A stretch of DNA of 64,000 bases from an uncultured Clostridia bacterium (GTDB lineage Bacteria; Bacillota; Clostridia; Christensenellales; QALW01): the NCBI GenBank assembly GCA_934465535.1, contig CAKSKV010000004.1, positions 41,715 to 105,714 on the forward strand. The letters are read 5' to 3'. Shown here piece by piece: positions 4,905-64,000 of the stretch. Within the stretch, counting starts at the first letter, position 1, and every line of letters begins with the position of its first letter. The notes below the pieces were generated by a model. That model did no database searches. It saw only the letters and a program-made list of their open reading frames with translations, and was not told the origin of the DNA. The position numbers and the translations under genes are program-made.

Positions 4905-4933
4905 TTTACAAAGCGTCATAATTATAGTAAAAT
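4905..4933 (+). promoter_or_regulatory. putative sigma-A promoter of the ABC-F gene
   Basis: TTTACA, 17-nt spacer, TAAAAT, about 30 nt upstream of the start codon. Confidence 0.4.
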
Positions 4934-4962
4934 AGGCTTTACTGTTAAGGAGAATGCAAACT

Positions 4963-6940: not shown

Positions 6941-7184
6941 CGGTTTTATGGGCTGCTTACCGGGAAATATAACAAAAAAATATGCTTTTTTATGCCTTCT
7001 ATATGCGTTTTTTTGTAAAAGTGCGGTGCAAAACGACGGTTTTATAAAGGCGGCCGCAGAGCAGGGCGGGCGCAGCGGGAGAGAAAAAATATATTTTCTT
7101 TTGTCGGGCGGGGGCGCCGCGGACGCCTTTTATATAAAGCTTGCGGTTTTAAGGCTTTTTAACTGTATATACATTAACCATAAA

Positions 7185-8359: not shown

Positions 8360-9610
8360 ATGAAAAGCACGCAATACAAAAATATGTATAAGACAGAGCC
8401 TGAATATTTCTTCCGGGAAACGCTGAGAATGCCGGAAGATATCGGGCCCGGAAAGGAGAAGCGCTTGGAGAACATAGGATATTCATACCGTACAACGGGG
8501 CCGGTATGCGCGCTGCTGCAGCTGACGCTTGCGGAGTTGGGCTTTGAACCGGGGCCGCCGGACGGCATATTCGGCCGGCGCACCGAAGCCGCCCTGCGCG
8601 CATATCAGAAAGCCGCCTCCCTGACGGCGGACGGCATTGCGGGCCCTGCCACATGGGAAAGCCTCGAGCCGGTACTGCTGAGCCACGGCGTATATACCTC
8701 TATCCCCTATTCCTCGGCTATATTGCAGTTAAATACAGAGGGCTTGCAGCGGCAGTTTCCGTTTGCGCGCACGGATGCAATAGGCGGCTCGGTGCAGGGC
8801 GTGCCTATTTGGCGCATAAGCCTTGGGGAGGGAGAACGGCGCATAATGATAAACGCCGCGCATCACGCAAACGAATGGATAACCTCCCCTTTGCTTATGC
8901 AGTACATTTTTTCGCTGTGCTCCGGCTTTGAGCAGGACGGCGAAGCGGACGGAGTGCCGGTGCGGGAGCTTTTTGCACGGCTGCGGATGGATTTTGTGCC
9001 CATGGTAAACCCTGACGGGGCGGATCTTGTAACAGGAGAGATACAAAAGGGCAGCCCCGCTTATATGTCGGCACTGGAGATGAACAGGCAGGAGCCGTTT
9101 CCGTCGGGGTGGAAGGCGAACATACGCGGAACGGATCTGAACCTGAATTATCCCGCCATGTGGGAAAGGGCACGCGAGCTTAAGTTTGCAGCCGGCTATA
9201 CCTCGCCCGGCCCCCGCGATTATGTTGGGCCGTTTCCGCTGAGTGAGCCGGAAAGCACGGCCATGGCGGCGCTTACGGTGCAAAGCGGATATTCTCTTTG
9301 CGTAAGCCTGCATACGCAGGGAGAGGTGATATATTGGCAGTTTGAGAATATGGCGCCCCTTCCCCGCAGCCTGGAAATAGGCACCGCCATGGCGGAGGCC
9401 TCCGGATACAGGCTGGATACGCCGGAGGAATTTTCCTCCTATGCCGGCTTTAAGGATTGGTTTATTATGACCTTTGGCCGTCCCGGATACACCCCGGAGT
9501 GCGGGCTTGGAAAAAATCCGCTGCCGATCTCGGATTTTGACGGGATATATGAGCATCTTGCACCGCTGCTTACCGCCGCGCTGCAGGAGGCCGCCTTCGG
9601 AGGAATATAA
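8360..9610 (+). CDS. M14 zinc carboxypeptidase with peptidoglycan-binding domain (gamma-D-Glu-DAP peptidase-like)
   Basis: PG_binding_1-like segment GPPDGIFGRRTEAALRAYQKAASLTADGIAGPATW, then M14 blocks HHANEWIT, MVNPDG, SLHTQGEVIYW. The exact start is uncertain. Confidence 0.8.
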   Translation: MKSTQYKNMYKTEPEYFFRETLRMPEDIGPGKEKRLENIGYSYRTTGPVCALLQLTLAELGFEPGPPDGIFGRRTEAALRAYQKAASLTADGIAGPATWESLEPVLLSHGVYTSIPYSSAILQLNTEGLQRQFPFARTDAIGGSVQGVPIWRISLGEGERRIMINAAHHANEWITSPLLMQYIFSLCSGFEQDGEADGVPVRELFARLRMDFVPMVNPDGADLVTGEIQKGSPAYMSALEMNRQEPFPSGWKANIRGTDLNLNYPAMWERARELKFAAGYTSPGPRDYVGPFPLSEPESTAMAALTVQSGYSLCVSLHTQGEVIYWQFENMAPLPRSLEIGTAMAEASGYRLDTPEEFSSYAGFKDWFIMTFGRPGYTPECGLGKNPLPISDFDGIYEHLAPLLTAALQEAAFGGI

Positions 9611-9745: not shown

Positions 9746-10555
9746 TTAATCGGCTATGGCCGGGGGTGTAAAGCCTTTGAAGGTGAAGGAAATGCTGCTT
9801 TGCTGGATTTTTATAAGAGAATTATCCGCCGTGCTGTAATACATATAGGTGGCGGTGCTGGTAAAGGCGGTATTGGGGCGCACTACAACGGCATAGCACT
9901 CCACTTCGTTGTCATTGGCGTCCTTTATGCTGGTTACCTCGGCAACGGTAAGGCACATGCTCTGTACGGAATCGCGATTGGAGGAGGACAGAGTGAAGTT
10001 GAGCTTAAGGTCTTTATAGAGCGACAGGCAGCTGATAACAAAGGGCAGGGTTTCGGAATCGTAATACTGGCTGCTCACATTTACGGTGTAATCGCTGGTG
10101 GTCATTTCGTTGCTGTTATCGGGATACTGCTTTACATGAATCTCGATTTTTCCCTGGTTGAAGAGATGGTCGACATTCACGGAAACATTCTGTTGGGTGT
10201 TATCGTTGTTTTTATAATCCATGCTGACGGACACCGGTGACATTTCGGTGCGCCCGTTTTCCTTCTGACCAAGAAGGATATTGACGGAATCGATGCTTTC
10301 GGCGCCCTTTTCGCCGTGGCTTTCTATGCGTATACGCTCCCTGCCGCTTTCGTCGGTGTATTTTGAAACGGTATAAACGGTGTCGTAATCAGAGGCGACA
10401 TCGCCGTTTACCTGTCTTGTGGCAAAGGTGTATTGACCCTCCTTAAGCTTGGAAACATCCAGCTGAAGCATATCGTTCTCAGGCGCGGCGCAGCCGCAGC
10501 AAAGCACGAGCAGCGCAGAGGTAAGCAGCGCGACAAGGCCGGTTTTCTTTTTCAT
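9746..10555 (-). CDS. hypothetical lipoprotein
   Basis: Signal peptide with a Cys-containing lipobox-like end (LLVLCCGCA). No recognisable catalytic motif. Confidence 0.6.
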   Translation of the reverse strand: MKKKTGLVALLTSALLVLCCGCAAPENDMLQLDVSKLKEGQYTFATRQVNGDVASDYDTVYTVSKYTDESGRERIRIESHGEKGAESIDSVNILLGQKENGRTEMSPVSVSMDYKNNDNTQQNVSVNVDHLFNQGKIEIHVKQYPDNSNEMTTSDYTVNVSSQYYDSETLPFVISCLSLYKDLKLNFTLSSSNRDSVQSMCLTVAEVTSIKDANDNEVECYAVVVRPNTAFTSTATYMYYSTADNSLIKIQQSSISFTFKGFTPPAIAD

Positions 10556-10793: not shown

Positions 10794-13007
10794 TTATTTT
10801 CTGCGCTTGCGGAAGAACACGGCTATAAGCACGGAGGCGCCGATAACCACCACCGCAATGGGAATAAGCATCCAGTGCAGCCCGAAGGGGACCTGAACCT
10901 GCTCTCCCGGCTCGGCGGTAGGCTGCTGTGTCGGAGGCGGCGTTACGGGATCGGAGGATTTTGCAAGCACGCTTGCCGCATCGGGCTGCCCCACTGCGTC
11001 ATCCACGGTTTTGCGATTGGGCGCGGTGTTGGTGGTTATGAAGGAAACGCCCTTGCGTGCGGTTTCCAGCATGGCCTTGCCGCCGTCCACCGTCCACATA
11101 TTTACAAGGGCGCCCCTGTGGGCAAGCGCGCGTGTTGCAGCGGCGGTCAATGCGCTGCTGGGACTGTATGAGCCGCCTGCGGAGGAGGTTTGGATATAGA
11201 AGGTTTCCAGGGATTTGACGGTGCCGTCGCCCTGAGCGTTTACCAGCAGGGAGGCGCCCACCTCCGGCATTTCCTCGCGGGATTTTTTGATTTGGTTGGG
11301 ATAAAAGCTGATTATTACTATGCGGTCCAGCATGCCCTTCTCGCGGGCAAGCTCGCTTATAAGGCGGGCGCATTTTGCCTTTTTGCTTTTTATTTCTATT
11401 ACCAGCATAAGGTCGTTGTTTTTCATTTCGTCAAAGAACTCGTCAAGGAAGGCGAAGTGCGCGCTGTTGTATTTGCCCACGGTGCGCAGGGTATATTCCT
11501 TGAGCTGCTCCCGCGTAAGGCGCTCCACATTTACATTGTCATTAGAGGTGGTATAGCCGCCCGTGGTGCCGTTATGGTTTATTAACAGATGGCCGTCGGA
11601 GGTTACATATACATCACATTCCACGGCATCGGCGCCTGCGGCTGCCGCTTCGCGCATACCCTCAACGGTGTTTTCCGGAGCAAGGGAGGGAACGCCGCGG
11701 TGCGCCACTATGAAGGGACGGCGCACAAAGGCCTCGCCCTGATCCACGGAGGAGAAAAGCTCATAGGCCTTGGCGTGGTCGGAAACCACAACATGGTTTG
11801 CGCCGCAGTCCAACGCCGCGCGCACTGCGGAATCGTCGGAGGTGTTTTCTTCAGGGCGCAGCATTACGGAGAGGAAGCGCGCCTGAAAATACTCGGCCTG
11901 CTCGCGGGTAACGGAGGACACCACCGCGATGTCGGCGTTTGCGCTGTGCACGGCAAATGCGCCCTCCGCGCCGGTTTTATCGGTTATAAGACCCTTGCGC
12001 ACCCCATTGGCGGATATTTCGCCAAGCACCTCAGCCGATGCGGAAACCACTATGAAATCGGTTTCGCCGCTTTGCTTTATGTATTCCTGAAGCTCCTGAG
12101 CCTGCTGCCGGCTGTCAAGCCGGAGCACGGGTATGATTCTTAAGCGGCAGGCGGCAAATATATCGGAAAGGGAGACGCCCTCAATCTTTGAAAGGTCAAA
12201 CCACGCAGCCTGAGTGGGAGCATCCTTGCTGAGGGAGGCTATGCCCTCCTTTGAGGAGATGTATTCCACAACGCTGGGGGGAGCTATAATGCCGGTTTCC
12301 GGCTCGTACACCATGCGGACGGTATCGCTTGCAGGCTCCTGACGATCCGCTATTTCGGCCGTTTTGGAAATGCGCACGGCATACACGCGCAGAACCGCCG
12401 CATTGGTTTGCAGGGCAAAGCCGCCGGCATCGGTAAGAAGGGCGGAATCGGTATAAAGCAGCTCCTGTCCGTTTATGCTTTGGGTGATCTTGCTGCCATC
12501 GCACACTATTTTGGCCGTATATATCTTATCCGGCGATATGCTTTCCGAAAAAGCGCCCTTGCCGTTATACTGCCAGGAGCCGCCGTTATCCTTGCAGGCG
12601 ATCTCCACGCCGTTTGCGGCCGCAGCGCCCCGCCGTATGCACATTTGCATATAAGGCTTGGGATCGGCGCCGGCGCCCGTCATTCTGTACATAAAGGATA
12701 TCCATCGGGTATCCTCGTTTGCGGAGGCTATGGTGAAATCCACCTCCATGGTGAAATCGGCAAGCTTTTCGCCGTCGGGAAGGTTTATGCTTGCTATACT
12801 GCTCTGTTCAAGCTGTACATAGCCGTTTTGAGCGCTGGCCTTGCCCGTAAGCACCGTAAGGGCCGAGGGCAGTGTATCTCCCGCTTTAAGGGAGGTGAAA
12901 TCGGCGTTAAGACAGTAGTCTTCGTCCTGTGCCGCAGCAGCGAAGCTAAAGCAGCCCAGCAGCATTACCAGTGCCGTCAGTGCACAGAGTAGCTTTGTTT
13001 TTCTCAT
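10794..13007 (-). CDS. glycerophosphodiester phosphodiesterase-family surface protein
   Basis: Signal peptide (start set at ATG 13007, MRKTKLL). GDPD blocks VAHRGVPSLAPENT and VECDVYVTSDGHLLINHN. C-terminal Pro/Thr linker, TM anchor and RKRRK. Confidence 0.8.
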   Translation of the reverse strand: MRKTKLLCALTALVMLLGCFSFAAAAQDEDYCLNADFTSLKAGDTLPSALTVLTGKASAQNGYVQLEQSSIASINLPDGEKLADFTMEVDFTIASANEDTRWISFMYRMTGAGADPKPYMQMCIRRGAAAANGVEIACKDNGGSWQYNGKGAFSESISPDKIYTAKIVCDGSKITQSINGQELLYTDSALLTDAGGFALQTNAAVLRVYAVRISKTAEIADRQEPASDTVRMVYEPETGIIAPPSVVEYISSKEGIASLSKDAPTQAAWFDLSKIEGVSLSDIFAACRLRIIPVLRLDSRQQAQELQEYIKQSGETDFIVVSASAEVLGEISANGVRKGLITDKTGAEGAFAVHSANADIAVVSSVTREQAEYFQARFLSVMLRPEENTSDDSAVRAALDCGANHVVVSDHAKAYELFSSVDQGEAFVRRPFIVAHRGVPSLAPENTVEGMREAAAAGADAVECDVYVTSDGHLLINHNGTTGGYTTSNDNVNVERLTREQLKEYTLRTVGKYNSAHFAFLDEFFDEMKNNDLMLVIEIKSKKAKCARLISELAREKGMLDRIVIISFYPNQIKKSREEMPEVGASLLVNAQGDGTVKSLETFYIQTSSAGGSYSPSSALTAAATRALAHRGALVNMWTVDGGKAMLETARKGVSFITTNTAPNRKTVDDAVGQPDAASVLAKSSDPVTPPPTQQPTAEPGEQVQVPFGLHWMLIPIAVVVIGASVLIAVFFRKRRK

Positions 13008-51628: not shown

Positions 51629-52047
51629 AGTTATAACCGCTTTCCCGAAGCATAAGGCTTCGCAGAGTAAGAATAAAACCGTTTCGGGCGCATAAAAAGC
51701 GCTTCGGCGGCATTTTTACGGTATGAATTTTATCATAAATAAGCCGTAAAAGAATGTGCAATCTGTAAACAATGCCGTTTTGCCCGATATTTTGGGCAAA
51801 AGACGAGCAAAAACATGCGCAAAAACGCAAAAAGCAGGGTTTATGTGCAGTTTGCACATTGAATACGCAAAGGAAATGAGTTATTATTATAATTGAATAA
51901 GTATGCCGGAGAACCGATTTACCGGTAGGAGCGCCACCGGGAATGCAGCAGCAAAAATGCGCAAAAACGCAGCGGCCGCCCATGCGCGGTTCCGTTTTGG
52001 GGAGCGGACGGGCACGGCAAAAAGAAAAGAGAAGGAAAGAAAACAAA

Positions 52048-54141
52048 ATGAAGCAAGGAAAAAAACTGCTGAGCATTATGCTGGCGATGCTTATCGCGGC
52101 CTTGGCCTGCGGGCTTACCGGCTGCATTAAGGCGCCGGGAGAGAGCGTAAGCGCAGAGGCAACACAGACTCCCGATACCGCCTTAAGCCCGGAGGCCACA
52201 CTTGACACAACTCCGTATACAACTCCCGGCGATACTCCCGATATAACGCCCGGCCCCACTCCGGCGCAAAGCGAAACCGTGCAGCCGCAGGATACCGAAT
52301 CTCCCGCGCCCACGCCCACGCCCGCTCCGGGAGATACCGGCGCGCCCGCACCGGGACCCACGGTATCCCATGCGCCGGTCAGCAAGTGGGATTATTATGT
52401 AACCTACGGCTCCGCCTCGATACGCACCGTTGCGCTTACCCGCTTTAACGACGGCACGCAGGGCGGCGGCGAAGGCAGCTTTACCTTTACCGGCGACGGG
52501 CTTTTAATAAAGCAGCAAAACGGCGCCTATGCCGATACCTACGGCATATATTCCGGGGCGAATCTGGGGTCGGCTGATTATTCCAAAGTGCGCTATGTGG
52601 GAATAACGGTTAAAAACCTTGAAAGCCACGATGTGCTTTTCGGGCTTCAGGGAACAGACAAAAATAGAAAGAATATATTTCTCTATCCCGAGGGCGATCC
52701 GATAGCTCTTGCTTATGACAACGGCGATATAAAGGCGGCCGGCGGTCAGGGCGGCGTGAACGGGCGCTATTGCATAGTGCTGCCCGCGGGCTTCTCCGGC
52801 AGCGTGTTTATCCCGCTTAACCGCATAGCGGACAGTCACGAAAAGGACAAGGCAAAGCAGTGGGCCAAAACCCCCATAACAAGCCCCGGCTTCCATTTAA
52901 GCGACGGCGGCAGCAAGGGAGTGCTGGTTTCGGCGCTGTTTATCTGCTCCTCTGCCCTGAAGGCTCCCGATGAGGCGGCGGGCGGCATTACAAACAAGGA
53001 CTACACCTATACCGAGGCTCAGCGCATTGCGGCCTTCTGGAAGAATTCCACAATGTACAACGAGTCCATCACCATGATGAAGCGTTCAAACGGCGAAATA
53101 TATGCAAAGACCCTGTTTGTGCCCACCAAGATAAACGCGGTGGTGGATGTGTACCTCCAGAAGGAATACAAGGAGGGCGTGGACTGGGAATGGGTAAAGG
53201 GCACAAACAAAATAAAGTGGCTCTCCGGCTCCTCCATTCCCTATTTTACGGATAACGACCTTTCCGGCAAGGATTCAAAGGGCAATTATATTCCGGAATT
53301 CCCCACATGGTCGGACGGCGGACGCAGCCGCTTCGGAAACGCGCTGTACTGCGTAAGCTCCTTCCTTTATGAAAAGCAGATATGCATAAGCTACACCTAC
53401 GATACGGCGCAGGTGGCAAAGCAGGGCATAAAATACACGCAGTATCAGGGCGATAAGCTGAAAAACACGGTGAACAAGCTTAAAAACGGCGAAAACCTGA
53501 AGGTGCTGTTCTACGGGGATTCCATATTCTCCGGCTGCGACGCCTCCGGCATGTATAACAGGGAGCCGTATATGCCCTATATGCACAAGCTTATACAGCA
53601 GGAGCTTTCCCGCAATACCAAGGGCAAGGTGCAGGTGGACAACTTGGCCGTGGGCGGCTGGACCGTGGAAAACGGACGGGACGCGCTTTCCGGCGAGGTG
53701 GGCGGATATAATTACTCTAATAAATACAAGGGCTACGACCTGCTTATACTCTCCTTCGGCATGAACAACGCGAGCACCCCCAAGGAGGAATATAATCCCG
53801 TAACCAAGGAATATGAAGGATATGTTCCGGCGACCAAGGCCATTGTGGATAAAATAAAGGCGGCAAACCCGAACCTTGAGGTGATACTGGTTTCCTGCAT
53901 GAACCCAAACCCCCGCGTGGGCTGGGATGTAAACCAGAAGAATCAGGGCGGATGGCTTAAGGAAATAGCGGCGCAAAGCCCGTATTCCTCCTATACTGCG
54001 GTGGTGGATTTCTATGCGGTGCACAAGAGCATACTTGCCTATAAGGATTTCAGCGCCACTACGGGCAACAACATAAACCATCCCAATGACTGGCTTATAC
54101 GCGTGTATGCGCAGAATATTCTTGCGGCGATGATAAAATAA
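52048..54141 (+). CDS. SGNH/GDSL hydrolase-family lipoprotein
   Basis: Start at ATG 52048. Lipobox LTGC, long Pro/Thr linker, then SGNH blocks FYGDSIFSG (block I), GMNN (block III), NINHPND (block V). Confidence 0.8.
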   Translation: MKQGKKLLSIMLAMLIAALACGLTGCIKAPGESVSAEATQTPDTALSPEATLDTTPYTTPGDTPDITPGPTPAQSETVQPQDTESPAPTPTPAPGDTGAPAPGPTVSHAPVSKWDYYVTYGSASIRTVALTRFNDGTQGGGEGSFTFTGDGLLIKQQNGAYADTYGIYSGANLGSADYSKVRYVGITVKNLESHDVLFGLQGTDKNRKNIFLYPEGDPIALAYDNGDIKAAGGQGGVNGRYCIVLPAGFSGSVFIPLNRIADSHEKDKAKQWAKTPITSPGFHLSDGGSKGVLVSALFICSSALKAPDEAAGGITNKDYTYTEAQRIAAFWKNSTMYNESITMMKRSNGEIYAKTLFVPTKINAVVDVYLQKEYKEGVDWEWVKGTNKIKWLSGSSIPYFTDNDLSGKDSKGNYIPEFPTWSDGGRSRFGNALYCVSSFLYEKQICISYTYDTAQVAKQGIKYTQYQGDKLKNTVNKLKNGENLKVLFYGDSIFSGCDASGMYNREPYMPYMHKLIQQELSRNTKGKVQVDNLAVGGWTVENGRDALSGEVGGYNYSNKYKGYDLLILSFGMNNASTPKEEYNPVTKEYEGYVPATKAIVDKIKAANPNLEVILVSCMNPNPRVGWDVNQKNQGGWLKEIAAQSPYSSYTAVVDFYAVHKSILAYKDFSATTGNNINHPNDWLIRVYAQNILAAMIK

Positions 54142-54381: not shown

Positions 54382-56121
54382 ATGAAAAACATCAGAAGCG
54401 GCGCATTTTTCGCGCCCTGCGGAAAAAAGAGCGGAAAAAGCGGAATAAAGCTGGATTATGTGGAGCCCACCGACCCCAAGGCGGGCAATACCGTGGCGCA
54501 TGCCGCCGTAAGCAAGTGGGATCAGACCTTTTCCTACGGCGATGCCTCGATAAAATGCACCGCACTTACCCGTTTTAACGACGGACAAATCGCTGCGGGC
54601 GAAAAAAGCGAGCAGGGGCTGCGCCTTACGGGCAGCGGCTTAAAGAAGGGCATAATAACCGGCGCAAACCTTGATTATGATTGCAGCGAGGCGGAGTATT
54701 ATGCAATATCGCTGTGCAATAACGGCAAAAAAGCGCTTATAGGCCTTGATGCGGATATTGAGGCGGACAAAGCAGTGCTGGCGCCGGAAAACGGAGAGCC
54801 GGAGGCGGTGCAGGCCGAAAAATGCGAAGGGATAAATGCCGCAGTGCTGCCCGAGGGCTTTAAGGGCTGCGTGCTTTTCCCGGTTAAAAACGCAAGGGAG
54901 AGCTTCGGCAGCGTTGATATAGCCTGGAGCGGCGATGTTACGCTGTGCGCACTGCTTATGTGCGATACGCCCCTTGAAATGCCGGGGCAGGGCAGCAAAA
55001 TAACAAACCCGCTGTACAGCTACACCGACAAACAGCGTATGCAGCCGTTTTGGGAGTGCTCCACCATGTATAATGAATCCATGGGCATGATGAAGCGGGA
55101 GGACGGCAGCATATGGGGCAAGCTGCTGTTTGTACCCACCCGCATAAACGCAGTGGTGGATGTATATCAGAAAAAGGAATATAAAGAGGGCAAGGACTGG
55201 CAGTGGATAGAGGGCACGAACCGAATAGTGCGCCCCGAAGGCTCGGATATTCCGTACTTTACGGAAGAAGGTCTTTCCGGCAAGGAGGAAAACGGCGAGT
55301 TCATTCCGGAATTCCCGACATGGACGGACGGCAGAAGCCGCTTCGGCGCCTGCCTGTACTGCGTGACGGATTTCATATATGAAAAGCAGATATGCGTATC
55401 CTATGAGTATGATTTAAGTCAGGTAAAGAGCGAGGGCATTGCAAGCACGCCGTGCCAGAGCGAGCGCCTTGTGCGCACAAATGCACGCCTTAAAGAGGGC
55501 CGCGACCTGAAGGTGCTGTTCTACGGGGATTCCATATTCTCCGGCTGTGACGCCTCCAGCATGTATAACAGAGAGCCTTTTATGCCCTATATGCATAAGC
55601 TTATAGAAAGCGCACTGGCCTCAAGAAGCACAGGGCGGGTGCGGGTGGACAACTTGGCCGTGGGCGGCTGGACCGTGGAAAACGGACGGGACGCACTTTT
55701 CGGCGATGTGGGCGGACACGATTATTCCAAGAGCTACAAGGGCTACGACCTTATGATACTTTCCTACGGCATGAACAATGCCTATACCCCCGAGGAGGAA
55801 TTCAAGGCGGCCACCCAAAAGATAATGGAAACGGTAAAAGAGGCAAACCCTGATATTGAAATAGTGCTGGTTTCCTGCATGAACCCCAACCCCCGCGTGG
55901 GCTGGGATGTAAACCAGAAATATCAGGGGCAGTGGCTTAAGGACATTGCCCAAATGCCTGCATGGCAGGAGCGCACGGCGCTTGTGGATTTCTATCAGGT
56001 GCATAAGAGCATACTGGTCTATAAGGATTTCAGCTCCACTACGGGCAACAACATAAACCACCCCAACGATTGGCTCATACGCGTGTATGCGCAGAATATA
56101 GTGCGGGCCATAACAGAATAG
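54382..56121 (+). CDS. SGNH/GDSL hydrolase-family protein (paralog lacking a signal peptide)
   Basis: Collinear with the upstream gene from VSKWD..ALTRFNDG to ..NINHPNDWLIRVYAQNI, with the same SGNH blocks. No lipobox or linker. Confidence 0.8.
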   Translation: MKNIRSGAFFAPCGKKSGKSGIKLDYVEPTDPKAGNTVAHAAVSKWDQTFSYGDASIKCTALTRFNDGQIAAGEKSEQGLRLTGSGLKKGIITGANLDYDCSEAEYYAISLCNNGKKALIGLDADIEADKAVLAPENGEPEAVQAEKCEGINAAVLPEGFKGCVLFPVKNARESFGSVDIAWSGDVTLCALLMCDTPLEMPGQGSKITNPLYSYTDKQRMQPFWECSTMYNESMGMMKREDGSIWGKLLFVPTRINAVVDVYQKKEYKEGKDWQWIEGTNRIVRPEGSDIPYFTEEGLSGKEENGEFIPEFPTWTDGRSRFGACLYCVTDFIYEKQICVSYEYDLSQVKSEGIASTPCQSERLVRTNARLKEGRDLKVLFYGDSIFSGCDASSMYNREPFMPYMHKLIESALASRSTGRVRVDNLAVGGWTVENGRDALFGDVGGHDYSKSYKGYDLMILSYGMNNAYTPEEEFKAATQKIMETVKEANPDIEIVLVSCMNPNPRVGWDVNQKYQGQWLKDIAQMPAWQERTALVDFYQVHKSILVYKDFSSTTGNNINHPNDWLIRVYAQNIVRAITE

Positions 56122-56327: not shown

Positions 56328-56403
56328 GGGGGTGTAGCTCAACTGGTAGAGCGCTTGAATGGCATTCAAGAGGTAAGGGGTTCGACCCCCCTCATCTCCA
56401 CCA
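56328..56403 (+). tRNA. tRNA-Ala (anticodon GGC)
   Basis: Folded by hand: acceptor GGGGGTG/CATCTCC with the G3:U70 Ala identity pair, D-arm GCTC-AACTGGTA-GAGC, anticodon arm CTTGA-ATGGCAT-TCAAG, variable loop AGGTA, T-arm AGGGG-TTCGACC-CCCCT, discriminator A and an encoded CCA. Confidence 0.9.
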
Positions 56404-56476
56404 AACAGGTATTGGACGAACACCTATTTCTTCAGCGGCGGTTTCGCCGTAAAGGTGATGCTCTAATACGAAACAG

Positions 56477-56514
56477 AAACCGCCATCTTAGATTAGGTTC
56501 TAAGGTGGCGGTTT
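56477..56514 (+). terminator. hairpin terminator after the tRNA
   Basis: AAACCGCCATCTTAG..CTAAGGTGGCGGTTT, a 15-bp stem with one G-U pair. The T residues lie partly within the stem. Confidence 0.5.
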
Positions 56515-56608
56515 TACATATAAGCAAGTCATTTGAAAATCAAGCCAATATCTGTAGTAATAAAATACAGAATAGTATTGAGTGTACACGAAATAAGGAG
56601 AACTATTT

Positions 56609-56869
56609 ATGTGGGAAAATATTGATATTGATAGGCATTACACGGGAGTGTTTCAAATTTTAGATGAACCAATATCGGGAGAATTGATTTATAATAAGCA
56701 AAATGGTACTATACTTTTAAGTCTAATAAAGGAAGTAAACTCGAAATCATTTTTCGGAAAAAGTTATGGCACACAACCGATTATTACCGGCAAGCTGAAC
56801 ACAGGTGCGGTAGTGACTCTTTTTAACAATCGGTGCAGTAACAACCATATTCATTGGTTACAAGACTAG
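56609..56869 (+). CDS. hypothetical 86-aa protein, probably a 5' gene fragment
   Basis: Good RBS (AAGGAGA). The sequence ends abruptly after ..VTLFNNRCSNNHIHWLQD and is followed by non-coding AT-rich DNA. Confidence 0.35.
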   Translation: MWENIDIDRHYTGVFQILDEPISGELIYNKQNGTILLSLIKEVNSKSFFGKSYGTQPIITGKLNTGAVVTLFNNRCSNNHIHWLQD

Positions 56870-56965
56870 TACGTTTTTTCTTTCTCGTTTTTTTTGTACA
56901 GGTCAAGATAAACACAAATATTCCGCTCTGATTTTATACTTATTTAAAGATTAGACAAAAAAGTC

Positions 56966-56994
56966 TTGACAAATACAGATGCGCCCATCATAAT
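56966..56994 (+). promoter_or_regulatory. candidate promoter at the head of the island
   Basis: TTGACA, 17-nt spacer, CATAAT. Confidence 0.4.
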
Positions 56995-57194
56995 ATACTT
57001 AAGAAATAAACTATCAAAAGACTTGGCCTTTTAAAAAAGAAGACAAAATCATATAGTTGCGTGATCGAGTGTCATAAAAAACATATTATTATACTGTAGT
57101 TTATTTTGATATATGAAATAATTCTTTAAAAGAGTTATGTGTAGTATAAAGCAAGAAAACAAAACTAATAAGTTTGGCATTGGAGAAACATATT

Positions 57195-57314
57195 ATGTTA
57201 AAGCAATGGCAAATATCGTTTGATGATGGATTATCGCCCTCATTATGTCTTTACGCAAATTTGAATAATGATAAGTTTAAAGCACACAATTATGTTGATC
57301 CGGTTACGGACTAA
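57195..57314 (+). CDS. 39-aa sORF MLKQWQISFDDGLSPSLCLYANLNNDKFKAHNYVDPVTD
   Basis: GGAGA lies 8 nt before the ATG. The 3' end of the ORF sits inside a long hairpin. Coding status is uncertain. Confidence 0.2.
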   Translation: MLKQWQISFDDGLSPSLCLYANLNNDKFKAHNYVDPVTD

Positions 57315-57338
57315 CATAATGGTGTGCTTTTTGTGTTT
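57279..57338 (+). terminator. terminator/attenuator-like hairpin upstream of the cluster
   Basis: AAAGCACACAATTATG (57279-57294) pairs with CATAATGGTGTGCTTT (57315-57330): 16 bp with one mismatch and a 20-nt loop, followed by TTGTGTTT. Confidence 0.45.
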
Positions 57339-57452
57339 AAAAATTACTTGCTGTTTTAGTTACTCAAGAGTGATGCTTAGGCAGCTTCGCAGCGTGCAGA
57401 GGTAGCGGGAAGCAGGATGGGTTCGCAGTATTATATGTGAGGAGAACGGTAT

Positions 57453-57950
57453 GTGGATGCAATTGAATGTATAAAGACAAGGCGCAGCGTTCGGCGCTAT
57501 ACCGATCAGCCGATTGACAAACAGGCAATACATCAAATTCTTGAAGCCGGCATCAGCGCTCCGTCCGGTAAAAACGGTCAGCCATGGAAATTCAAAGTTG
57601 TAACCGATAAAGAATTGATAAACAACATATCTGATTTATCGATTCATGGTTCATGGATGAAAACGGCACCGCTGATTATTGTGATATTTCTTGATAACGC
57701 CTGTTCATATGACCGACTGAAAGATATTCAATCCTGTGGAGCGGTTATGCAAAATATGATGTTAACCGCACACTCTCTTGATATCGGAAGCTGTTGGATT
57801 GGCGAAATACTGCCTAAGTCAAAAGAAGTAAAGCAAGTTTTGAAACTTAATGATGAAAGCCTTGAACTCATGGGAATTGTACTATTCGGACATAAATCGA
57901 GCCGAATGATTGATCCGGGGCGAAAGAGAATTGAATCGTTTCTGTTGTAA
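57453..57950 (+). CDS. nitroreductase-family flavoprotein
   Basis: RRSVRRYTDQPI and SAPSGKNGQPWKF motifs. GTG start 8 nt after GAGGAG. Confidence 0.85.
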   Translation: MDAIECIKTRRSVRRYTDQPIDKQAIHQILEAGISAPSGKNGQPWKFKVVTDKELINNISDLSIHGSWMKTAPLIIVIFLDNACSYDRLKDIQSCGAVMQNMMLTAHSLDIGSCWIGEILPKSKEVKQVLKLNDESLELMGIVLFGHKSSRMIDPGRKRIESFLL

Positions 57951-57962
57951 CGGCGGTATGGT

Positions 57963-59303
57963 ATGAGCAGAATTGCTTTGATTGGCGAGAACTCTATTGA
58001 ATATGTAAGTACACTGCTTGATATATGGAATTCTGGAGATTGCGCAGTATTGATAGACTGGCGGATACCGATTCAGACTGCAGTAGAAATGATGAATGAA
58101 GCCGAAGTGCATGTCTGTTACATCGAGAAAAAATATTACGGCAAAGTTTCCGGCGCGCGGTCTCAATGCATTACATTTATTCCTTTTGAGAAAAAGGCAA
58201 CTGCCGCAGGGCATCTGCCGGAATCAGTATATGATAGGTTCAAACCAAACTACAGCAAAAACGAAGCGGTTGTTTTATACAGTTCCGGAACAACAGGAAA
58301 ATCCAAAGGAATAATTCTTTCGCACTTTGCAATTAACACAAATGCCGATGCAATCATTGACTATATGAAACCCAATGCGGGAGATTGTATTTATATCGCA
58401 AAAACATTCTCTCATTCATCAACACTTACAGGAGAATTGCTGGTATCGCTTAAAACTCAAACCAAGCTTGTAATCGCGCCAACGATTGTTCCTCCGAGAT
58501 ATATGCTGGGAAAGATAAGAGAATTCAATGTTACAATAATATGTTTGAATCCGACATTACTTTCAATGCTTGCGAATGAAGTGCAACGAGACAAGTATGA
58601 CATTCCTTCGCTCAGAACGATATATGTCAGCGGCTCCATCTTGAACAATACGACCTATGTAAAAGCTCATGACACATTTAGAGATATACCGGTTTACAAT
58701 GTATACGGCTTGTCCGAAGCAGGGCCGAGAGTTGCAGCGCAGCGTGAAGGATGTTGCTCATCAAATTCAGTTGGAAGTCCGATTCTGGGCGTAGAAATAG
58801 TCATTGTCGATGAAAATGGAACACCGGTTACTGATGGGGAGCGCGGAACCGTTCATGTGACTACACCGAGTCAATTCTGCGGCTATATATCCGGACAAGT
58901 AAAGCAGCAGTCCATGTACAGGGATTGGCTGAATACCGGCGACATCGGGTATATCAACGATAACGGTGAATTGCATATTACCGGTCGTGTTGATGATGTA
59001 ATTGTTTTGGATGCACACAAAATTTATCCGTGCAAAATTGAAAATACTATCCTTGAATCGACTAATGTTTCTGAATGCGTCGTCGTAAAGGTTGAGTATA
59101 AGGATAACGAGTTTATTGGTTGCTTATATGTCGGGAATGATATTTCAGAGCAAGAAATAAGGGACAAGCTAAAAAACAAGCTCCCAACCTACGAAATCCC
59201 GAGGCGCTTTATACGATGCAATACAATTCCTCGAACATTAAACGGCAAAATATCCAACGCAGATATAAGAGAGAAAATAGTAAATGCTATAGAAATGGAG
59301 TAA
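57963..59303 (+). CDS. AMP-forming acyl/aminoacyl ligase (ANL superfamily)
   Basis: LYSSGTTGKSKGI (A3), YGLSEAGP (A5), TGDIGY and ITGRVDDVI (A7/A8), LNGK (A10). Confidence 0.85.
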   Translation: MSRIALIGENSIEYVSTLLDIWNSGDCAVLIDWRIPIQTAVEMMNEAEVHVCYIEKKYYGKVSGARSQCITFIPFEKKATAAGHLPESVYDRFKPNYSKNEAVVLYSSGTTGKSKGIILSHFAINTNADAIIDYMKPNAGDCIYIAKTFSHSSTLTGELLVSLKTQTKLVIAPTIVPPRYMLGKIREFNVTIICLNPTLLSMLANEVQRDKYDIPSLRTIYVSGSILNNTTYVKAHDTFRDIPVYNVYGLSEAGPRVAAQREGCCSSNSVGSPILGVEIVIVDENGTPVTDGERGTVHVTTPSQFCGYISGQVKQQSMYRDWLNTGDIGYINDNGELHITGRVDDVIVLDAHKIYPCKIENTILESTNVSECVVVKVEYKDNEFIGCLYVGNDISEQEIRDKLKNKLPTYEIPRRFIRCNTIPRTLNGKISNADIREKIVNAIEME

Positions 59304-59307
59304 AGAA

Positions 59308-59592
59308 ATGACAACAGAAGAGATAAAAACAGAAGTAATTGATTTGATTTCCGAATTGTTCGGGGACAAGGGTTTTGACACCGACATCATTGAATATGCC
59401 GATTTAGTCGATGACATGGGCATGGATTCAATAACCTTCATTTCGATTGTCGTCGAGCTTGAGGTAAAGTTTGATATTACTGTGTCGGATGATATGTTGC
59501 TGATAGATAACTTCAAGAAAGTCGATGATATTGTAGCTGTTGTCGAAAATGAACTGGCGAAAGGAGCTGAAAACGGCGATGGCTGTAAATGA
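59308..59592 (+). CDS. acyl/peptidyl carrier protein
   Basis: 94 aa. DMGMDSITFISIVVELE contains the phosphopantetheine Ser in a D-S-(I/L) context. Confidence 0.8.
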   Translation: MTTEEIKTEVIDLISELFGDKGFDTDIIEYADLVDDMGMDSITFISIVVELEVKFDITVSDDMLLIDNFKKVDDIVAVVENELAKGAENGDGCK

Positions 59593-60820
59593 AGAAAAGC
59601 TTGTTAAGATGCTAAGATATGTATCTGAGTATAACGATTTTTACAAGAACAGAATAAAAGAATACGGAATAACAAATCCGTTGGATATTACGCAATGGCC
59701 TGTTCTGACAAGGAAAGAGTTGCAAGAAAACCGGTATAATATGTTCTCGGATGGGTATAAGTCAAAGTATTTTAATCAGCAGCTCCGCAGACAGTCATCA
59801 TCCGGTTCATCCGGAATGCCGGTTAACGTCTATTGGGATTACAAAGACTGGTATGCATCAAATATGTCATTATGGCGCAAAAGGTGGCAGTGGTATGGTA
59901 TTAAGCCGGGCGACAAATATGTTATGTTTACATTGAATGCATTCAATGTAAAAGTGAACGGCGAGACTGTCTACTATATCAAAAAACCCGAGAATGTTCT
60001 GTCGGTCAATGTTTCTTTGATTCAAAATGAAGAGCAGTACAAAAATCTTGTTGATATCATGAACGATTTTAATCCTGCGTGGCTATATATTCAGCCTTTT
60101 GTACTTAATAAACTGATTCAAATCTACAAGAAATATGATTTGAAAAAGCCGACTGCTCTTAGATATATTGAATCCGTTGGTGAATTGCTATCATCAGATT
60201 TAAGAAGGCGGGCAATTGAATTCTTTGATGTTGCATTTGCCAATATGTATGGCTCAGAAGAAATGAACGGTATTGCGTATGAGTGTCCAGAATACCATAT
60301 GCAGGTGCTTAATGATAACATATATATTGAGGTTCAGAATAATAATGGCATTAGTCTAAGCGGAGACGGTGAGGCGATTATAACTAATTTGAATAATTTT
60401 GCTATGCCACTTATACGGTATAATCAATGCGATTGTATTGTTGTAGATAATTCTCAACCATATTCATGTGTAAATAACAGAAACATTATTTGTCATATCA
60501 ACGGAAGATCTTCTGATTGTATTGCACTGGGTGATAAAGAAATCAACAGCTATTTTTTAGTTGAAATACTATCAGAAACAAATAATCATTATAATGGTAT
60601 AATTGATTTTTATCGTTATGTGTATAAAAAATCTCAAAGAAAAATTGAATGTATGATAAATACAAAGAAAACTGAGTGGTATAGCAATATTAAAAAAACT
60701 TTGGAGGACATCTTTATAAAACAAGTCTTGCCTGATACCGATATTAGTTTTGAGGTCAAATTGGACAAAGAGGCTTTGCTTTATGGAGAGAAACCTCAAA
60801 TACTAACAATAGTTGATTAA
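59579..60820 (+). CDS. PaaK/F390-synthetase-like adenylate-forming enzyme
   Basis: SSGSSGMPV P-loop-like motif and YGSEE.., with the overall length and pattern of the phenylacetate-CoA ligase/CapK family. The start is uncertain (TTG 59540, ATG 59549 or ATG 59579) and overlaps the carrier gene end. Confidence 0.75.
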   Translation: MAVNEEKLVKMLRYVSEYNDFYKNRIKEYGITNPLDITQWPVLTRKELQENRYNMFSDGYKSKYFNQQLRRQSSSGSSGMPVNVYWDYKDWYASNMSLWRKRWQWYGIKPGDKYVMFTLNAFNVKVNGETVYYIKKPENVLSVNVSLIQNEEQYKNLVDIMNDFNPAWLYIQPFVLNKLIQIYKKYDLKKPTALRYIESVGELLSSDLRRRAIEFFDVAFANMYGSEEMNGIAYECPEYHMQVLNDNIYIEVQNNNGISLSGDGEAIITNLNNFAMPLIRYNQCDCIVVDNSQPYSCVNNRNIICHINGRSSDCIALGDKEINSYFLVEILSETNNHYNGIIDFYRYVYKKSQRKIECMINTKKTEWYSNIKKTLEDIFIKQVLPDTDISFEVKLDKEALLYGEKPQILTIVD

Positions 60821-60906
60821 TCAATTGATCAAATCTATTTCAATTACTATTTAACGTACAATAAAATTGTATGTTAAAGATATAACTAAAACACAAGGAG
60901 AGTAGT

Positions 60907-62256
60907 ATGAGTGTCTTTGAAAATGATACCCCTGTTGTTAAGACATTCGTGTACAAGAATAAATGTTATTTATATGATACATATAATAATCAGCTCTTTT
61001 CTGTACACAGTAGACTTTATTACGAAATTTGCAAAATGCAAACAATAGGTATTTGTAAATATATGCATTTAAATTGTAATGATAATTACTATAAAGATGT
61101 GTTAACATTAATGAATAAGGGGTACTTACGCCATGGATTCATTGACAAAGTCCAGCATCAGTCAACACCTTATATAGAGTATCTAACAGAGCGTTGTATG
61201 AGTCATTTAGTTCTTGAGGTAACAAATTCATGCAATTTTAAATGTAGATATTGTCACCAAGCGAGTAATCAAACTATAAATAAAAAAGTAATGAACACAA
61301 ATGTAGCATATCGCAGTATTGACTTGTTTTATGAACATTCAAAGGATGCGAATGATTTAGTATTGACCTTTTATGGCGGTGAGCCACTTATTAATTTCAA
61401 TTTAATAAAAGAAATGGTTATGTATGCGAAAGATAAGTTCAAGACAAAAAGGGTTTCATTTAATATAACAACAAATGCATCCTTAATTGATGAGGAAATA
61501 ATCGATTTTTTATATAGTAATGGCTTTTCAATTTTAATAAGTTTAGACGGAGATGAAGTGATTCAAAACAGTCATCGAAAGTTTCTAATAGATGGTGGAG
61601 ATACTTTTGATATTGTATGGAATAATATTCTTAAAATTCGCGCCAAATATCCCTCGTTTTTCAACTCGAATGTAAGTTTCAATTCTGTAAGATTGCAAGA
61701 CGAATCAAGAAGAAAAGTAGTAGAGTTTTTTAGAAAAAATGGTATATCTGATTCGTCAATTAGTATTCGTGATGCAGATATGGACGGCATTGATTATATA
61801 TATTCGCCGTTGTTTATAGATGCCAATAATAGAGATGATGACAGTATTAACAAAGATGATTTTTCTAACGTATTAAAGTTATATAACAACAAAAGTAAGA
61901 TACCAAAGGTATGGCATCATAATGGACCTTGTATACCAGCAGTAAATCGTCTGTTTGTCAGCACGGAAGGAAAGTTTTATCCATGCGAAAAAGTAGAACA
62001 AGATGATGCGTGTTCCATTGGAGACTTAGCAACAGGTGTTGATATTGACAAAGTGGTGCGAATCTTAAACATTGGCCAGATTACGAGTAATGATTGTCCG
62101 AATTGTTGGGCTTTAAGATTTTGCTCGATATGTGTGCATCGTTGCGTTGATAACGGGAGTTTATCGTACGATAAAAAAGTTAGATCTTGTAAAAAAACAA
62201 AAGAAGATGCAATAAGATTTTTTAAATATCTTATAGATAATAAACAGGTGAAGTAA
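60907..62256 (+). CDS. radical SAM peptide maturase with SPASM-type C-terminal domain
   Basis: SCNFKCRYC (CxxxCxxC), FYGGEPL, and a C-terminal Cys cluster GPCIPAV..GKFYPCEK..CPNCWALRFCSICVHRC. RBS AAGGAGA. Confidence 0.9.
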   Translation: MSVFENDTPVVKTFVYKNKCYLYDTYNNQLFSVHSRLYYEICKMQTIGICKYMHLNCNDNYYKDVLTLMNKGYLRHGFIDKVQHQSTPYIEYLTERCMSHLVLEVTNSCNFKCRYCHQASNQTINKKVMNTNVAYRSIDLFYEHSKDANDLVLTFYGGEPLINFNLIKEMVMYAKDKFKTKRVSFNITTNASLIDEEIIDFLYSNGFSILISLDGDEVIQNSHRKFLIDGGDTFDIVWNNILKIRAKYPSFFNSNVSFNSVRLQDESRRKVVEFFRKNGISDSSISIRDADMDGIDYIYSPLFIDANNRDDDSINKDDFSNVLKLYNNKSKIPKVWHHNGPCIPAVNRLFVSTEGKFYPCEKVEQDDACSIGDLATGVDIDKVVRILNIGQITSNDCPNCWALRFCSICVHRCVDNGSLSYDKKVRSCKKTKEDAIRFFKYLIDNKQVK

Positions 62257-62299
62257 ATAGTAAATATCTGTAATAAAGAAGGAAGGGATAGCTTTGCAA

Positions 62300-63172
62300 A
62301 TGGAAAATATAGGTTTGCTAACTAATTCGATTACGGCTCGTATGTTAATGTATCAAATTGATTATGTGTTAAACATACCTGTGAAAAATATCTATGTTTT
62401 ATCTGAAAACCATAATAAAAGCGAAATATTTCCTACTAGCGGCGCAAAAGTAACTATATGTGACTCATATGATGAGTTCATACAAAAAAGTGAATTGATA
62501 ATTACTTCAAACAAGCAAGAAACGTTAGCGCATATTGACAACAGAAAACTTCTATTTATTGATAGCCCTTGGAATGGTTATGAAAATCATAGCATGAATG
62601 GTTGTTTAACTAAAAAGCTTAATTATTCGAATGCTCCTGTTGTTTTTATATTATCAATTGGCGATTTTACCGATCAATATCACATTGAAATACTTGTCAA
62701 TAAAATCGTAGCCTCGAAAACAAAAAGAATAGCACAAATTTTTACCCCGGAAACAAAAGCATTACTAGATAGTATCGCTAAATCAAAAAACATAAATCCC
62801 AATTTAGTAAATGCATGCAATAATAATGATGGTGATGTAATTATTATTTCTGCAAATAATATATCGAATGATTTAGAATTGATACAAATTATAAAAGAAA
62901 TATCTCCGGATTACTTTATCTTATGTGTTGATTACTCATTTAACGGATTAAATGAGGTTGAGTTATTCTTTTCAAATATTTGTAAAATAAATATTGTTGT
63001 CCAATCTCCCTATATTACAAATAAATTGTTGGAAGGAAAACAATGGTCTGTTTATTGTAATGTAGAAAAATCCAATGTCTTCCATAATACATTGGAAAAA
63101 GATTTCGAAAACTACTTGGAATTACACATTATGCAGAAAATATTCATGCCTAACAGTATTGGCTTTGTATAA
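62300..63172 (+). CDS. hypothetical protein of the peptide-maturation cluster (possibly TIGR04066-like)
   Basis: 290 aa with no motif I recognise. Its position between the rSAM and precursor genes matches my recollection of the clostridial TIGR04066 family. ATG 62300 follows GAAGGAAGGG. Confidence 0.6.
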   Translation: MENIGLLTNSITARMLMYQIDYVLNIPVKNIYVLSENHNKSEIFPTSGAKVTICDSYDEFIQKSELIITSNKQETLAHIDNRKLLFIDSPWNGYENHSMNGCLTKKLNYSNAPVVFILSIGDFTDQYHIEILVNKIVASKTKRIAQIFTPETKALLDSIAKSKNINPNLVNACNNNDGDVIIISANNISNDLELIQIIKEISPDYFILCVDYSFNGLNEVELFFSNICKINIVVQSPYITNKLLEGKQWSVYCNVEKSNVFHNTLEKDFENYLELHIMQKIFMPNSIGFV

Positions 63173-63198
63173 CATTTGAAAATTGAAAAGCGGAATAG
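63170..63198. repeat. left arm of a perfect 29-bp inverted repeat
   Basis: TAACATTTGAAAATTGAAAAGCGGAATAG. It begins with the stop codon of the upstream gene. Confidence 0.9.
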
Positions 63199-63215
63199 TG
63201 GAAGGAGGTGAAAAA

Positions 63216-63386
63216 ATGTTTTTGAAGTCTGATAACAACAATGATTTTATAACAAGATCGTGTTGTTCTCCTACCTGCCAGTGTGGTACTTGTGGTGGTG
63301 TTTCAACTGCAGAATCAAAGGGGCGTAGCGGAGCTACTAGCAGTGGTGGAACCGTTGTTTCTGCCCAAAGCCCAACGTCTGCATAA
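63216..63386 (+). CDS. 56-aa Cys-rich RiPP precursor candidate
   Basis: MFLKSDNNNDFITRSCCSPTCQCGTCGGVSTAESKGRSGATSSGGTVVSAQSPTSA. GGAAGGAGGTG lies 7 nt upstream. It sits beside the rSAM/SPASM enzyme and an exporter. Confidence 0.65.
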   Translation: MFLKSDNNNDFITRSCCSPTCQCGTCGGVSTAESKGRSGATSSGGTVVSAQSPTSA

Positions 63387-63423
63387 GCAGACTAATAGCA
63401 TTATGATAAGTATAGTTTATTAC

Positions 63424-63452
63424 CTATTCCGCTTTTCAATTTTCAAATGTTA
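63424..63452. repeat. right arm of the perfect 29-bp inverted repeat
   Basis: CTATTCCGCTTTTCAATTTTCAAATGTTA, the exact reverse complement of 63170-63198. Confidence 0.9.
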
Positions 63453-63478
63453 ATAATAAGTGAAAGCGTGGCGAAATA

Positions 63479-64000
63479 ATGAAGGATAAAATAAATCATT
63501 TCCTTAAAGCCGAATGGTTTTGCCTAAAACAGATTTTTAAAACAGATTTTTTAAACGGCTTGGTTTTTTTAATTATTACTGGGATAAAATATGCAATTCC
63601 GCTTATCAGCGTGTGGTTATGGAAAATAATACTTGATGAATTGACCTTAATCTACCAAACAAAAGCAGCAAGCAATGATATATGGATATATCTCGGAATA
63701 TATCTTGTGATTCAAATGTTTTCGTCTGTCATTGTTCAAGTGAACTCAGTTATTTACGCAAAAGTAAGGCGAAAAGCATCATATGAGCTTGACATGGCAA
63801 TCATGCGGAAGATGGCGCAAATTGATTCCGCTTTCTTTGACGATCCGGAAAACAAGGATGTAACAGAAGCGGCACGGACAAGCGAAGGATATATCGCACT
63901 TAATATGCCGTGGGCGATTGATACGATTATCCGGATCATTACCTTTATTTCGGGTCTTGTTATGTTTCTTTCCTATGACTGGATTGTCGGGTTGATTTAC
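63479..64000 (+). CDS. ABC exporter permease/ATPase, 5' part (truncated by the window end)
   Basis: Open frame from ATG 63479 to the window edge (MKDKINHFLKAEWF..). It has exporter TMD features (hydrophobic helices, ..MRKMAQIDSAFFDDPE..) and no C39 peptidase-like N-terminus. Confidence 0.75.
   Translation, partial: MKDKINHFLKAEWFCLKQIFKTDFLNGLVFLIITGIKYAIPLISVWLWKIILDELTLIYQTKAASNDIWIYLGIYLVIQMFSSVIVQVNSVIYAKVRRKASYELDMAIMRKMAQIDSAFFDDPENKDVTEAARTSEGYIALNMPWAIDTIIRIITFISGLVMFLSYDWIVGLIY

Follow-up and report, generated by a model that had tools for sequence, protein, structure and literature searches.

A predicted long-range RNA helix encloses the precursor gene in CcpM-like and other radical SAM peptide operons

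The DNA studied here, referred to as the window, is a 64,000-nt stretch of contig CAKSKV010000004.1 (assembly GCA_934465535.1, positions 41,715–105,714) from an uncultured Clostridia bacterium. Near its end, a small gene for a cysteine-rich precursor peptide lies in an operon with a radical S-adenosylmethionine (rSAM) maturase gene, and this gene is bracketed by a perfect 29-bp inverted repeat. The question raised by the locus is what such a repeat does around a single cistron of an operon. The initial annotation of the window had offered an RNA duplex, an invertible DNA switch and the ends of a swappable cassette as possible answers. To judge from sequence comparison, the arms most likely act as an RNA helix in the sense transcript and not as a DNA flip-switch, and by analogy with known systems the helix probably excises or stabilises the precursor mRNA. 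The two arms with the cistron between them are called the clamp below.

A repeat search found the two arms to be exact reverse complements 225 nt apart. As the initial annotation had described, the segment between them holds only the ribosome-binding site, the 56-codon open reading frame (ORF) and a 37-nt trailer (Table 1), and the left arm opens with the stop codon of the upstream gene, the TAA at 63170–63172 forming its first three bases. The same annotation held that the repeat was very unlikely to have arisen by chance. The arm was unmatched in 100 dinucleotide shuffles (0/100). In a window-wide scan for ungapped inverted repeats spaced 60–700 nt apart, the clamp pair had the top score of 29, and the runner-up scored 14. 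The arm sequence is confined to these two sites in the 64-kb window with up to three mismatches tolerated. The RNA fold of positions 63150–63480 has an energy of −110.9 kcal/mol (z = −7.4 versus shuffles), with the arms forming the closing helix, and the ensemble arm–arm pairing probability is 0.99. The helix can be extended to about 32 pairs (63168–63200 with 63423–63455), and the Shine–Dalgarno (SD) sequence lies 4 nt from it. Rfam covariance models gave zero matches at E ≤ 1 in positions 62400–64000. Promoter and terminator consensus scans found no local terminator and no promoter at the arms, and no promoter-like site between them. The minimum free energy structures of both the window and the related locus L015 contain a 6-bp hairpin (GUCUGC-AUAA-GCAGAC, 63377–63392 in the window) with the precursor stop codon in its loop.

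The exact precursor protein is present on 24 read contigs, with identical gene order and orientation among the 10 matches listed. Arms are perfect in 12 near-identical contigs (L001–L012), which are more than 99% identical and encode the same proteins; because of this near-identity, their arms are uninformative on selection. Loci L015 and L016, 89–94% identical overall, have one change in 58 arm positions, a left-arm C-to-U replacement by which pairing with G is retained. Contigs L013 and L014, which come from different assemblies and represent a relative of 86% identity, share their last base, which lies 17 nt beyond the stop codon of the 292-aa gene that precedes the precursor. These ends fall where the left arm is expected, and both an assembly break at the repeat and a branch point between variants are possible.

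More distant loci were collected from genomes and metagenomes through an alignment of maturase homologues (A1), and the contigs of additional homologues were looked up. The relatives' contigs are metagenome assemblies. Loci L018, L096 and L104, which end before the precursor region, and the degraded locus L100 were left out. The rSAM proteins of the relatives are 37–53% identical to that of the window. All relatives with a homologue of the 292-aa gene feature the order maturase, gene of ~290–314 aa and Cys-rich ORF of 44–60 aa, with an ABC transporter gene mostly next. For each small ORF, the 5′ flank was aligned with its own 3′ flank in reverse complement; 262 mismatched flank pairs across lineages served as the control. 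Local alignment scores were used, as RNAduplex z-scores with long flanks were poor at separating shorter helices.

A long-range helix closing exactly the small ORF was found in 11 of 13 independent lineages (window/L015, L017/L177/L097, L019, L020/L102, L021, L101, L103, L182, L186, L189 and L190). Under strand-symmetric scoring, 10/13 lineages lay at or above the maximum of the mismatched-flank controls; under sense-strand RNA scoring, p ≤ 0.02 was obtained in 11/13. Ensemble arm–arm pairing probabilities across lineages were 0.89–1.00. The helices are 11–33 bp long and the loops 204–490 nt. Arm sequences mostly differ between lineages, and a short inner core, AAAG-Y-GG-R / Y-CC-R-CUUU, is common to many of them. 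Across the 13 lineages, the leader from the left arm to the start codon measures 15–32 nt and always contains the SD, which is never in the conserved helix; the predicted probability of the SD being unpaired is only 0.07–0.6. The left arm begins between 0 and ~26 nt from the upstream stop codon (0–9 nt in six lineages), and the distance from the precursor stop to the right arm is mostly 30–90 nt. Locus L182 carries tandem precursor genes (5853–6029 and 6087–6257). In L186, the loop includes ~300 nt 3′ of the precursor ORF with no obvious coding capacity.

The remaining rSAM loci retrieved with A1, 1.34 Mb in all, were also searched for clamps. Only ~17 spaced inverted repeats in this sequence score at least 16, and five of them bracket a Cys-rich small ORF beside a maturase gene. 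Of 122 small, Cys-rich ORFs in the vicinity of other rSAM genes, 15 lie above the 99th percentile of mismatched-flank controls, with about one expected. Closing helices were confirmed by folding in L145, L049, L134, L027, L063, L033, L060, L068, L072, L120, L155 and L159; the clamp of L032 was rejected, its high score coming from the same local hairpin present in both flanks. These clusters of other families include ones from Peptoniphilus, Peptostreptococcus, Fontibacillus, Sporosalibacterium and uncultured Clostridia, and some of the clamped precursors are PapB/ranthipeptide-like, of the form 'MK[IV][IV]NP...C.C.C'. Six PapB-like loci share the arm motif AAAAAG(U)GGGUAG / CUACCC(A)CUUUUU and are alignable in sequence, with the closing helix as the main consensus feature. 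In this helix, 89.5% of cells are paired, and both partners are altered in 9 of 19 pairs. The helix has a covariation score of 0.393 versus 0.241 ± 0.042 for shuffled alignments (0/500), and 0.07–0.17 with slid partners. These loci show that the same design, as predicted from sequence, recurs around the precursors of other rSAM peptide clusters. A compact local hairpin stands directly 3′ of the right arm in L021 (3712–3751), L120 (~3091–3113), L145 (~5545–5565) and L063 (~1738–1790). The clamp may work together with a conventional downstream stem-loop in those lineages.

The exchanges within the arms bear on whether the pairing is kept in RNA or in DNA. In the L017 group, RNAalifold retains the closing stem, with CG-to-UA and AU-to-GC pair changes and six one-sided switches between G·U and A-U or between G·U and G-C. 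A further AU-to-GC pair change separates L020 and L102. In a strand-symmetric alignment with both kinds weighted equally, the interior transition mismatches comprise 13–14 of the G·U type on the sense strand versus 3–4 of the A·C type, an A·C mismatch on the sense strand being a G·U on the antisense strand. The one-sided binomial probability of this bias is 0.006–0.025, according to the treatment of L102, whose alignment is ambiguous. The sense score exceeds the antisense score in nine lineages and is below it in two. The comparisons show a predicted helix that is under selection for sense-strand pairing across related operons.

The reading preferred here, to which we assign a probability of roughly 0.55, is that the clamp is a sense-strand RNA duplex processed by ribonuclease III (RNase III), which frees the precursor mRNA from the operon or stabilises it. 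The arms would pair over 29–32 bp in the operon transcript and close a 225-nt loop that is exactly the precursor cistron, so that the precursor message would form a discrete module, flanked by the maturase genes on one side and the exporter genes on the other. RNase III would cut the near-perfect duplex and release a precursor mRNA of ~250 nt, both ends of which would still be base-paired. The paired ends would shield it from exonucleases at both ends, those at the 5′ end being of the RNase J1 type, and the upstream enzyme mRNA and downstream exporter mRNA would decay at their own rates. The net result would be a precursor abundance uncoupled from that of the enzymes, giving the precursor excess that such pathways need.

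Since neither a local terminator nor a promoter consensus was detected at the arms, read-through past them is plausible. Perfect duplexes of 29 bp are textbook RNase III substrates. The RNase III gene rnc is, to our knowledge, near-universal among spore-forming Firmicutes, and the host is regarded as one of these because of a GerXA-like germination gene on its chromosome. Long-range duplexes within single mRNAs, of 10–36 bp and with strands no more than 505 nt apart, harbour the RNase III sites of Bacillus subtilis (Taggart et al., NAR 2025, PMC11780869). The window helix, with 29–32 bp and a 225-nt loop, falls inside this range, as do the clamps of the relatives. The RNA duplex proposed in the initial annotation is supported by pairing kept in position, arms that turn over, compensatory and G·U changes, a sense-strand bias and a geometry within that of the mapped Bacillus substrates; the RNase III step itself is inferred.

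Several points weigh against this reading. Cleavage, the RNA ends and RNA stability are all predictions. The clamp has the polarity of a terminator (A-rich left arm, U-rich right arm, U-run after the core), none of which RNase III needs. The G·U versus A·C count is small, some of its events were de-duplicated by hand, and the L102 alignment is ambiguous. No significant helix was found in L022 and L188 (2 of 13 lineages) under either scoring. The SD lies so close to the helix in the window that it may be affected in translation. The window's own arms are perfect and contain zero G·U pairs, and considered by themselves they would be just as compatible with a mechanism at the DNA level; the RNA argument rests on the relatives.

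Among the explanations at the DNA level, an inverton would require a site-specific recombinase to invert the 225 bp and so place the precursor antisense to the operon. A perfect 29-bp repeat pair around a segment of this size, within the ~100–700 bp expected, does look inverton-like, and it resembles the RecV switches of Clostridioides difficile and the invertible promoters of Bacteroides, with paired repeats of 20–30 bp around 150–300 bp in gut Firmicutes. The initial annotation had stated that no recombinase is in the window; this holds for the window itself, and a truncated tyrosine-recombinase-like ORF lies just outside it, ~5.7 kb downstream, in the window's lineage. This fragment has no homologue at any relative's locus, although the enzyme could be encoded elsewhere in the genome. 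The inverted configuration proposed in that annotation did not appear in any of 41 inspected contigs (~13 lineages). The precursor is co-oriented with the operon in all 41, and these assemblies show the majority orientation only, so that a minority orientation in reads is possible, though no positive sign of one was seen. An inverted copy would read GCTTTGTA + arm + GTAATAAAC. An exact search of metagenome contigs for the inverted junction gave 0 matches, with no positive control for the native junction there. The shared end base of L013 and L014 could stem from orientation polymorphism, and an ordinary assembly break could produce it equally well. Unlike in invertons, the segment has no promoter consensus and holds a complete SD and ORF, and the arm mismatches lean to sense-strand G·U, which is unexpected for DNA recombination sites. 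An inversion switch is therefore considered highly improbable. The same low likelihood is given to a functionless DNA by-product, that is, the ends of a mobile or swappable cassette (of the kind of a miniature inverted-repeat transposable element, MITE) or a quasipalindrome kept perfect by template switching. The DNA-level perfection of the arms in the window and 12 near-identical contigs and the location on a horizontally acquired low-GC island fit such an origin. The repeat, however, occurs as a single copy in the 64-kb window, and its flanks (GTA before the left arm, ATA after the right arm) bear no target-site duplication. Largely different arms stand at the same operon position in 11 lineages, which independent insertions cannot account for, and the covariation and strand bias point to selection. 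On the grounds of lone copy, missing target-site duplication and lineage-specific arms at a fixed operon position, the cassette suggested in the initial annotation, MITE or other mobile element, was rejected.

At the RNA level, the main rival is a split Rho-independent terminator or attenuator, whose inner core GCGGAAUAG / CUAUUCCGC precedes a U-rich run UUUUCAAUUU and whose 5′ half lies upstream of the precursor SD. Termination past the precursor gene would yield excess precursor transcripts, and ribosomes stationed at the upstream stop codon or the precursor SD could mask the left arm and allow read-through to the exporter genes. This explanation, which we regard as unlikely, would account for the polarity of the clamp: 13/15 lineages combine an A-rich left arm with a U-rich right arm (p = 0.004), and a GC-richer inner core followed by a U-rich run is found in most lineages. 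The PapB-like arms read AAAAAGUGGGUAG ... CUACCCACUUUUU. In the window, the core CUAUUCCGC is followed by UUUUCAAUUU with 7 U in 10, a pattern that is similar in most lineages and not in all, L189, L190 and L019 having no U-run after the core. The overlap of the left arm with the upstream stop codon and an SD 4–20 nt from the arm are also in its favour. Peptide natural-product operons usually place leaky terminators after precursor genes, and in work by Yarnell and Roberts from 1999 oligonucleotides acting in trans are said to stand in for the 5′ half of a terminator hairpin. A loop of 204–490 nt, however, is far beyond known intrinsic terminators, and a scan for stems with loops of 3–8 nt found nothing at the arms, which enclose 225 nt here. 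The window core is weak, with 5 G/C among 9 core bases, and complementarity is kept over the whole 29–33 bp, including the outer ~20 bp that would be absent from the terminated RNA. RNase III processing and split termination are not mutually exclusive. A more elaborate form, in which ribosome occupancy between the upstream stop and the SD would decide on helix formation as the polymerase reaches the right arm, and the precursor ORF would serve as a leader peptide gating exporter/immunity genes across ranthipeptide-type operons, seems rather doubtful. The helix might instead be a translational device that joins the stop and start of the short ORF for re-initiation (closed loop), or that blocks the 30S subunit until upstream ribosomes melt the left arm (coupling). 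It would suit this that the left arm lies at or within ~26 nt of the upstream stop and ends 15–32 nt before the start codon, that the stop-to-right-arm distance is mostly 30–90 nt and that the predicted SD accessibility is low (0.07–0.6). But the SD and AUG are never within the conserved helix, the clamp of L068 stands 5′ of the maturase gene, and we know of no precedent for ribosome recycling through such a helix. No specific support was found for either the closed loop or the coupling, and both are thought quite unlikely.

The kind of element is known: long-range mRNA duplexes and selective processing or stabilisation within operons have been described. The B. subtilis duplexes of PMC11780869 are likewise situated in Firmicute mRNA and agree in dimensions with the clamps (10–36 bp and up to 505 nt, versus 11–33 bp and loops of 204–490 nt). 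Those sites were mapped experimentally, whereas cleavage of the clamps is proposed; they belong to unrelated genes (priA, atpA, asnB and others), and neither enclosure of a complete cistron nor conservation as a type of operon layout has been reported for them. None of sboA, skfA, yydF, sunA and albA was found in the supplementary tables of that paper. The RNase III stalks of rrn transcripts around 16S and 23S rRNA are similar in that flanking segments pair over a long range, cleavage of the stalk excises the unit and the pairing outlasts sequence drift. Unlike them, the clamp unit is a translated mRNA for a 56-aa peptide in a biosynthetic operon, and its loop comprises hundreds and not thousands of nucleotides. 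Attenuator or terminator hairpins after the precursor genes of lantibiotics, sactipeptides, lasso peptides and microcin C have the same presumed purpose, namely more precursor than enzyme message, and the right arm of the clamp resembles them with its terminator-like core and following U-run. Such hairpins, however, are compact, local and 3′ of the ORF only, whereas the 5′ strand of the clamp lies upstream of the SD, which makes a loop of the entire cistron.

Selective RNA processing and stabilisation occurs in the puf, pap and cellulosome operons, among others. It is also documented by an Escherichia coli targetome (PMC10667835). In such systems, segment stability sets protein stoichiometry and stems at the ends block exonucleases, as is proposed for the clamp; the known cases use separate local stem-loops at the ends, whereas the clamp would be a single helix made from both. 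In the hok mRNA of type I toxin–antitoxin systems, the fbi element pairs the 5′ and 3′ ends of a short-peptide message and stabilises it, much like the clamp. The hok pairing silences translation until 3′ trimming; the clamp belongs to a biosynthetic operon and leaves the SD free of the conserved helix. Full-text literature searches turned up no account of precursor genes enclosed by a helix or repeat, and Rfam has no model of such an element. The systematic enclosure of the precursor cistron across CcpM-like and PapB-like clusters appears to be new.

If the preferred reading of an RNA duplex with RNase III processing is true, many Firmicute rSAM peptide operons would contain an RNA element that acts in cis to delimit the precursor message as a unit of its own. 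Refactored or codon-optimised clusters usually drop such flanks and may lose the natural precursor-to-enzyme ratio. A long-range helix around a small ORF beside an rSAM gene would be a simple signature for unannotated precursor genes, and the clamp could be a compact natural part for setting stoichiometry in synthetic operons. It would also offer a conserved and comparatively tractable test case for the long-range RNase III duplexes of Bacillus and for telling processing from long-range termination.

Table 1. Coordinates of the clamp and neighbouring genes in the window, and of clamps at other loci (designated by L numbers).
Feature	Position	Strand	Details
rSAM/SPASM peptide maturase, CcpM-like	60907-62256	+	PF04055, Fer4_12; best NCBIfam match TIGR04068 CcpM
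292-aa protein	62294-63172	+	From ORF list; between maturase and precursor
Left (5′) helix arm	63170-63198	+	A-rich, TAACATTTGAAAATTGAAAAGCGGAATAG
Leader within loop, 17 nt	63199-63215	+	SD AGGAGG 63203-63208, 7 nt 5′ of ATG; outside helix
Precursor peptide ORF	63216-63386	+	56 aa (56 codons + stop); Cys-rich core MFLKSDNNNDFITRSCCSPTCQCGTCGG...
Trailer within loop, 37 nt	63387-63423	+	From sequence
Right (3′) helix arm	63424-63452	+	U-rich, CTATTCCGCTTTTCAATTTTCAAATGTTA; inner core CTATTCCGC then TTTTCAATTT
First of two downstream ABC-transporter genes, start only	63479-64000	+	Weak NCBIfam ABC matches; continues past window
L017/L177 helix	10206-10238 / 10477-10509 (L017)		29-33 bp
L097 helix			~30 bp; both strands of inner part altered versus L017
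L019 helix	4685-4711 / 4932-4958		26/27 paired
L020 helix	6643-6660 / 6959-6977		One bulge, two G·U pairs
L102 helix			Relative of L020
L021 helix			20/21 paired, with bulge
L103 helix			21 bp, with bulge
L101 helix			15 bp, perfect
L182 helix	6054-6069 / 6304-6319		16 bp, perfect; only second of two precursors enclosed
L186 helix	5219-5245 / 5736-5762		27 bp, two G·U; 490-nt loop
L189 helix			13-14 bp
L190 helix			11 bp
L145 clamp	5252-5543
L049 clamp	~9295-9600
L134 clamp	5233-5536
L063 clamp	1430-1719
L120 clamp	2820-3090
L155 clamp	3480-3745
L068 clamp	7415-7708
L072 clamp	10882-11290
L159 clamp	6452-6811

The genes around the clamp form a biosynthetic cluster in the order nitroreductase, acyl-AMP ligase, carrier protein, PaaK-like ligase, rSAM/SPASM maturase, 292-aa protein, precursor and ABC transporters. 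The maturase matches TIGR04068 (CcpM) with E = 4e-108 and 362 bits, which is under the 500-bit cut-off, and is hence named CcpM-like only. The 292-aa protein matched no Pfam or NCBIfam family. Its homologues, with 24–38% identity, occupy the same position in L017–L022, L097 and L101–L103, and a word-indexed protein search with it returned 14 near-identical proteins and one more distant (83% identical). The four genes 5′ of the maturase (57453–60820) are also kept in relatives, which suggests that the Cys-rich peptide additionally undergoes acylation or some other tailoring. Near-identical contigs carry complete ABC_tran genes of 601 aa and 594 aa, and beyond this pair two genes without known function and then the truncated tyrosine-recombinase-like (Phage_int-like) ORF, which marks the far end of the island ~5.7 kb downstream of the precursor, just beyond the window.

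The GC-content falls from ~53% to 30–39% directly past the tRNA-Ala gene at 56328–56403 (low-GC stretch 56400–64000), and the cluster is therefore placed on an acquired island. An ApeA_NTD1-like fragment is situated at 56609–56869. Two large ORFs (51943–54141, 732 aa, and 54382–56121, 579 aa), adjacent paralogues with very similar C-terminal halves, lie shortly before the tRNA-Ala gene, still on the host side of the boundary.

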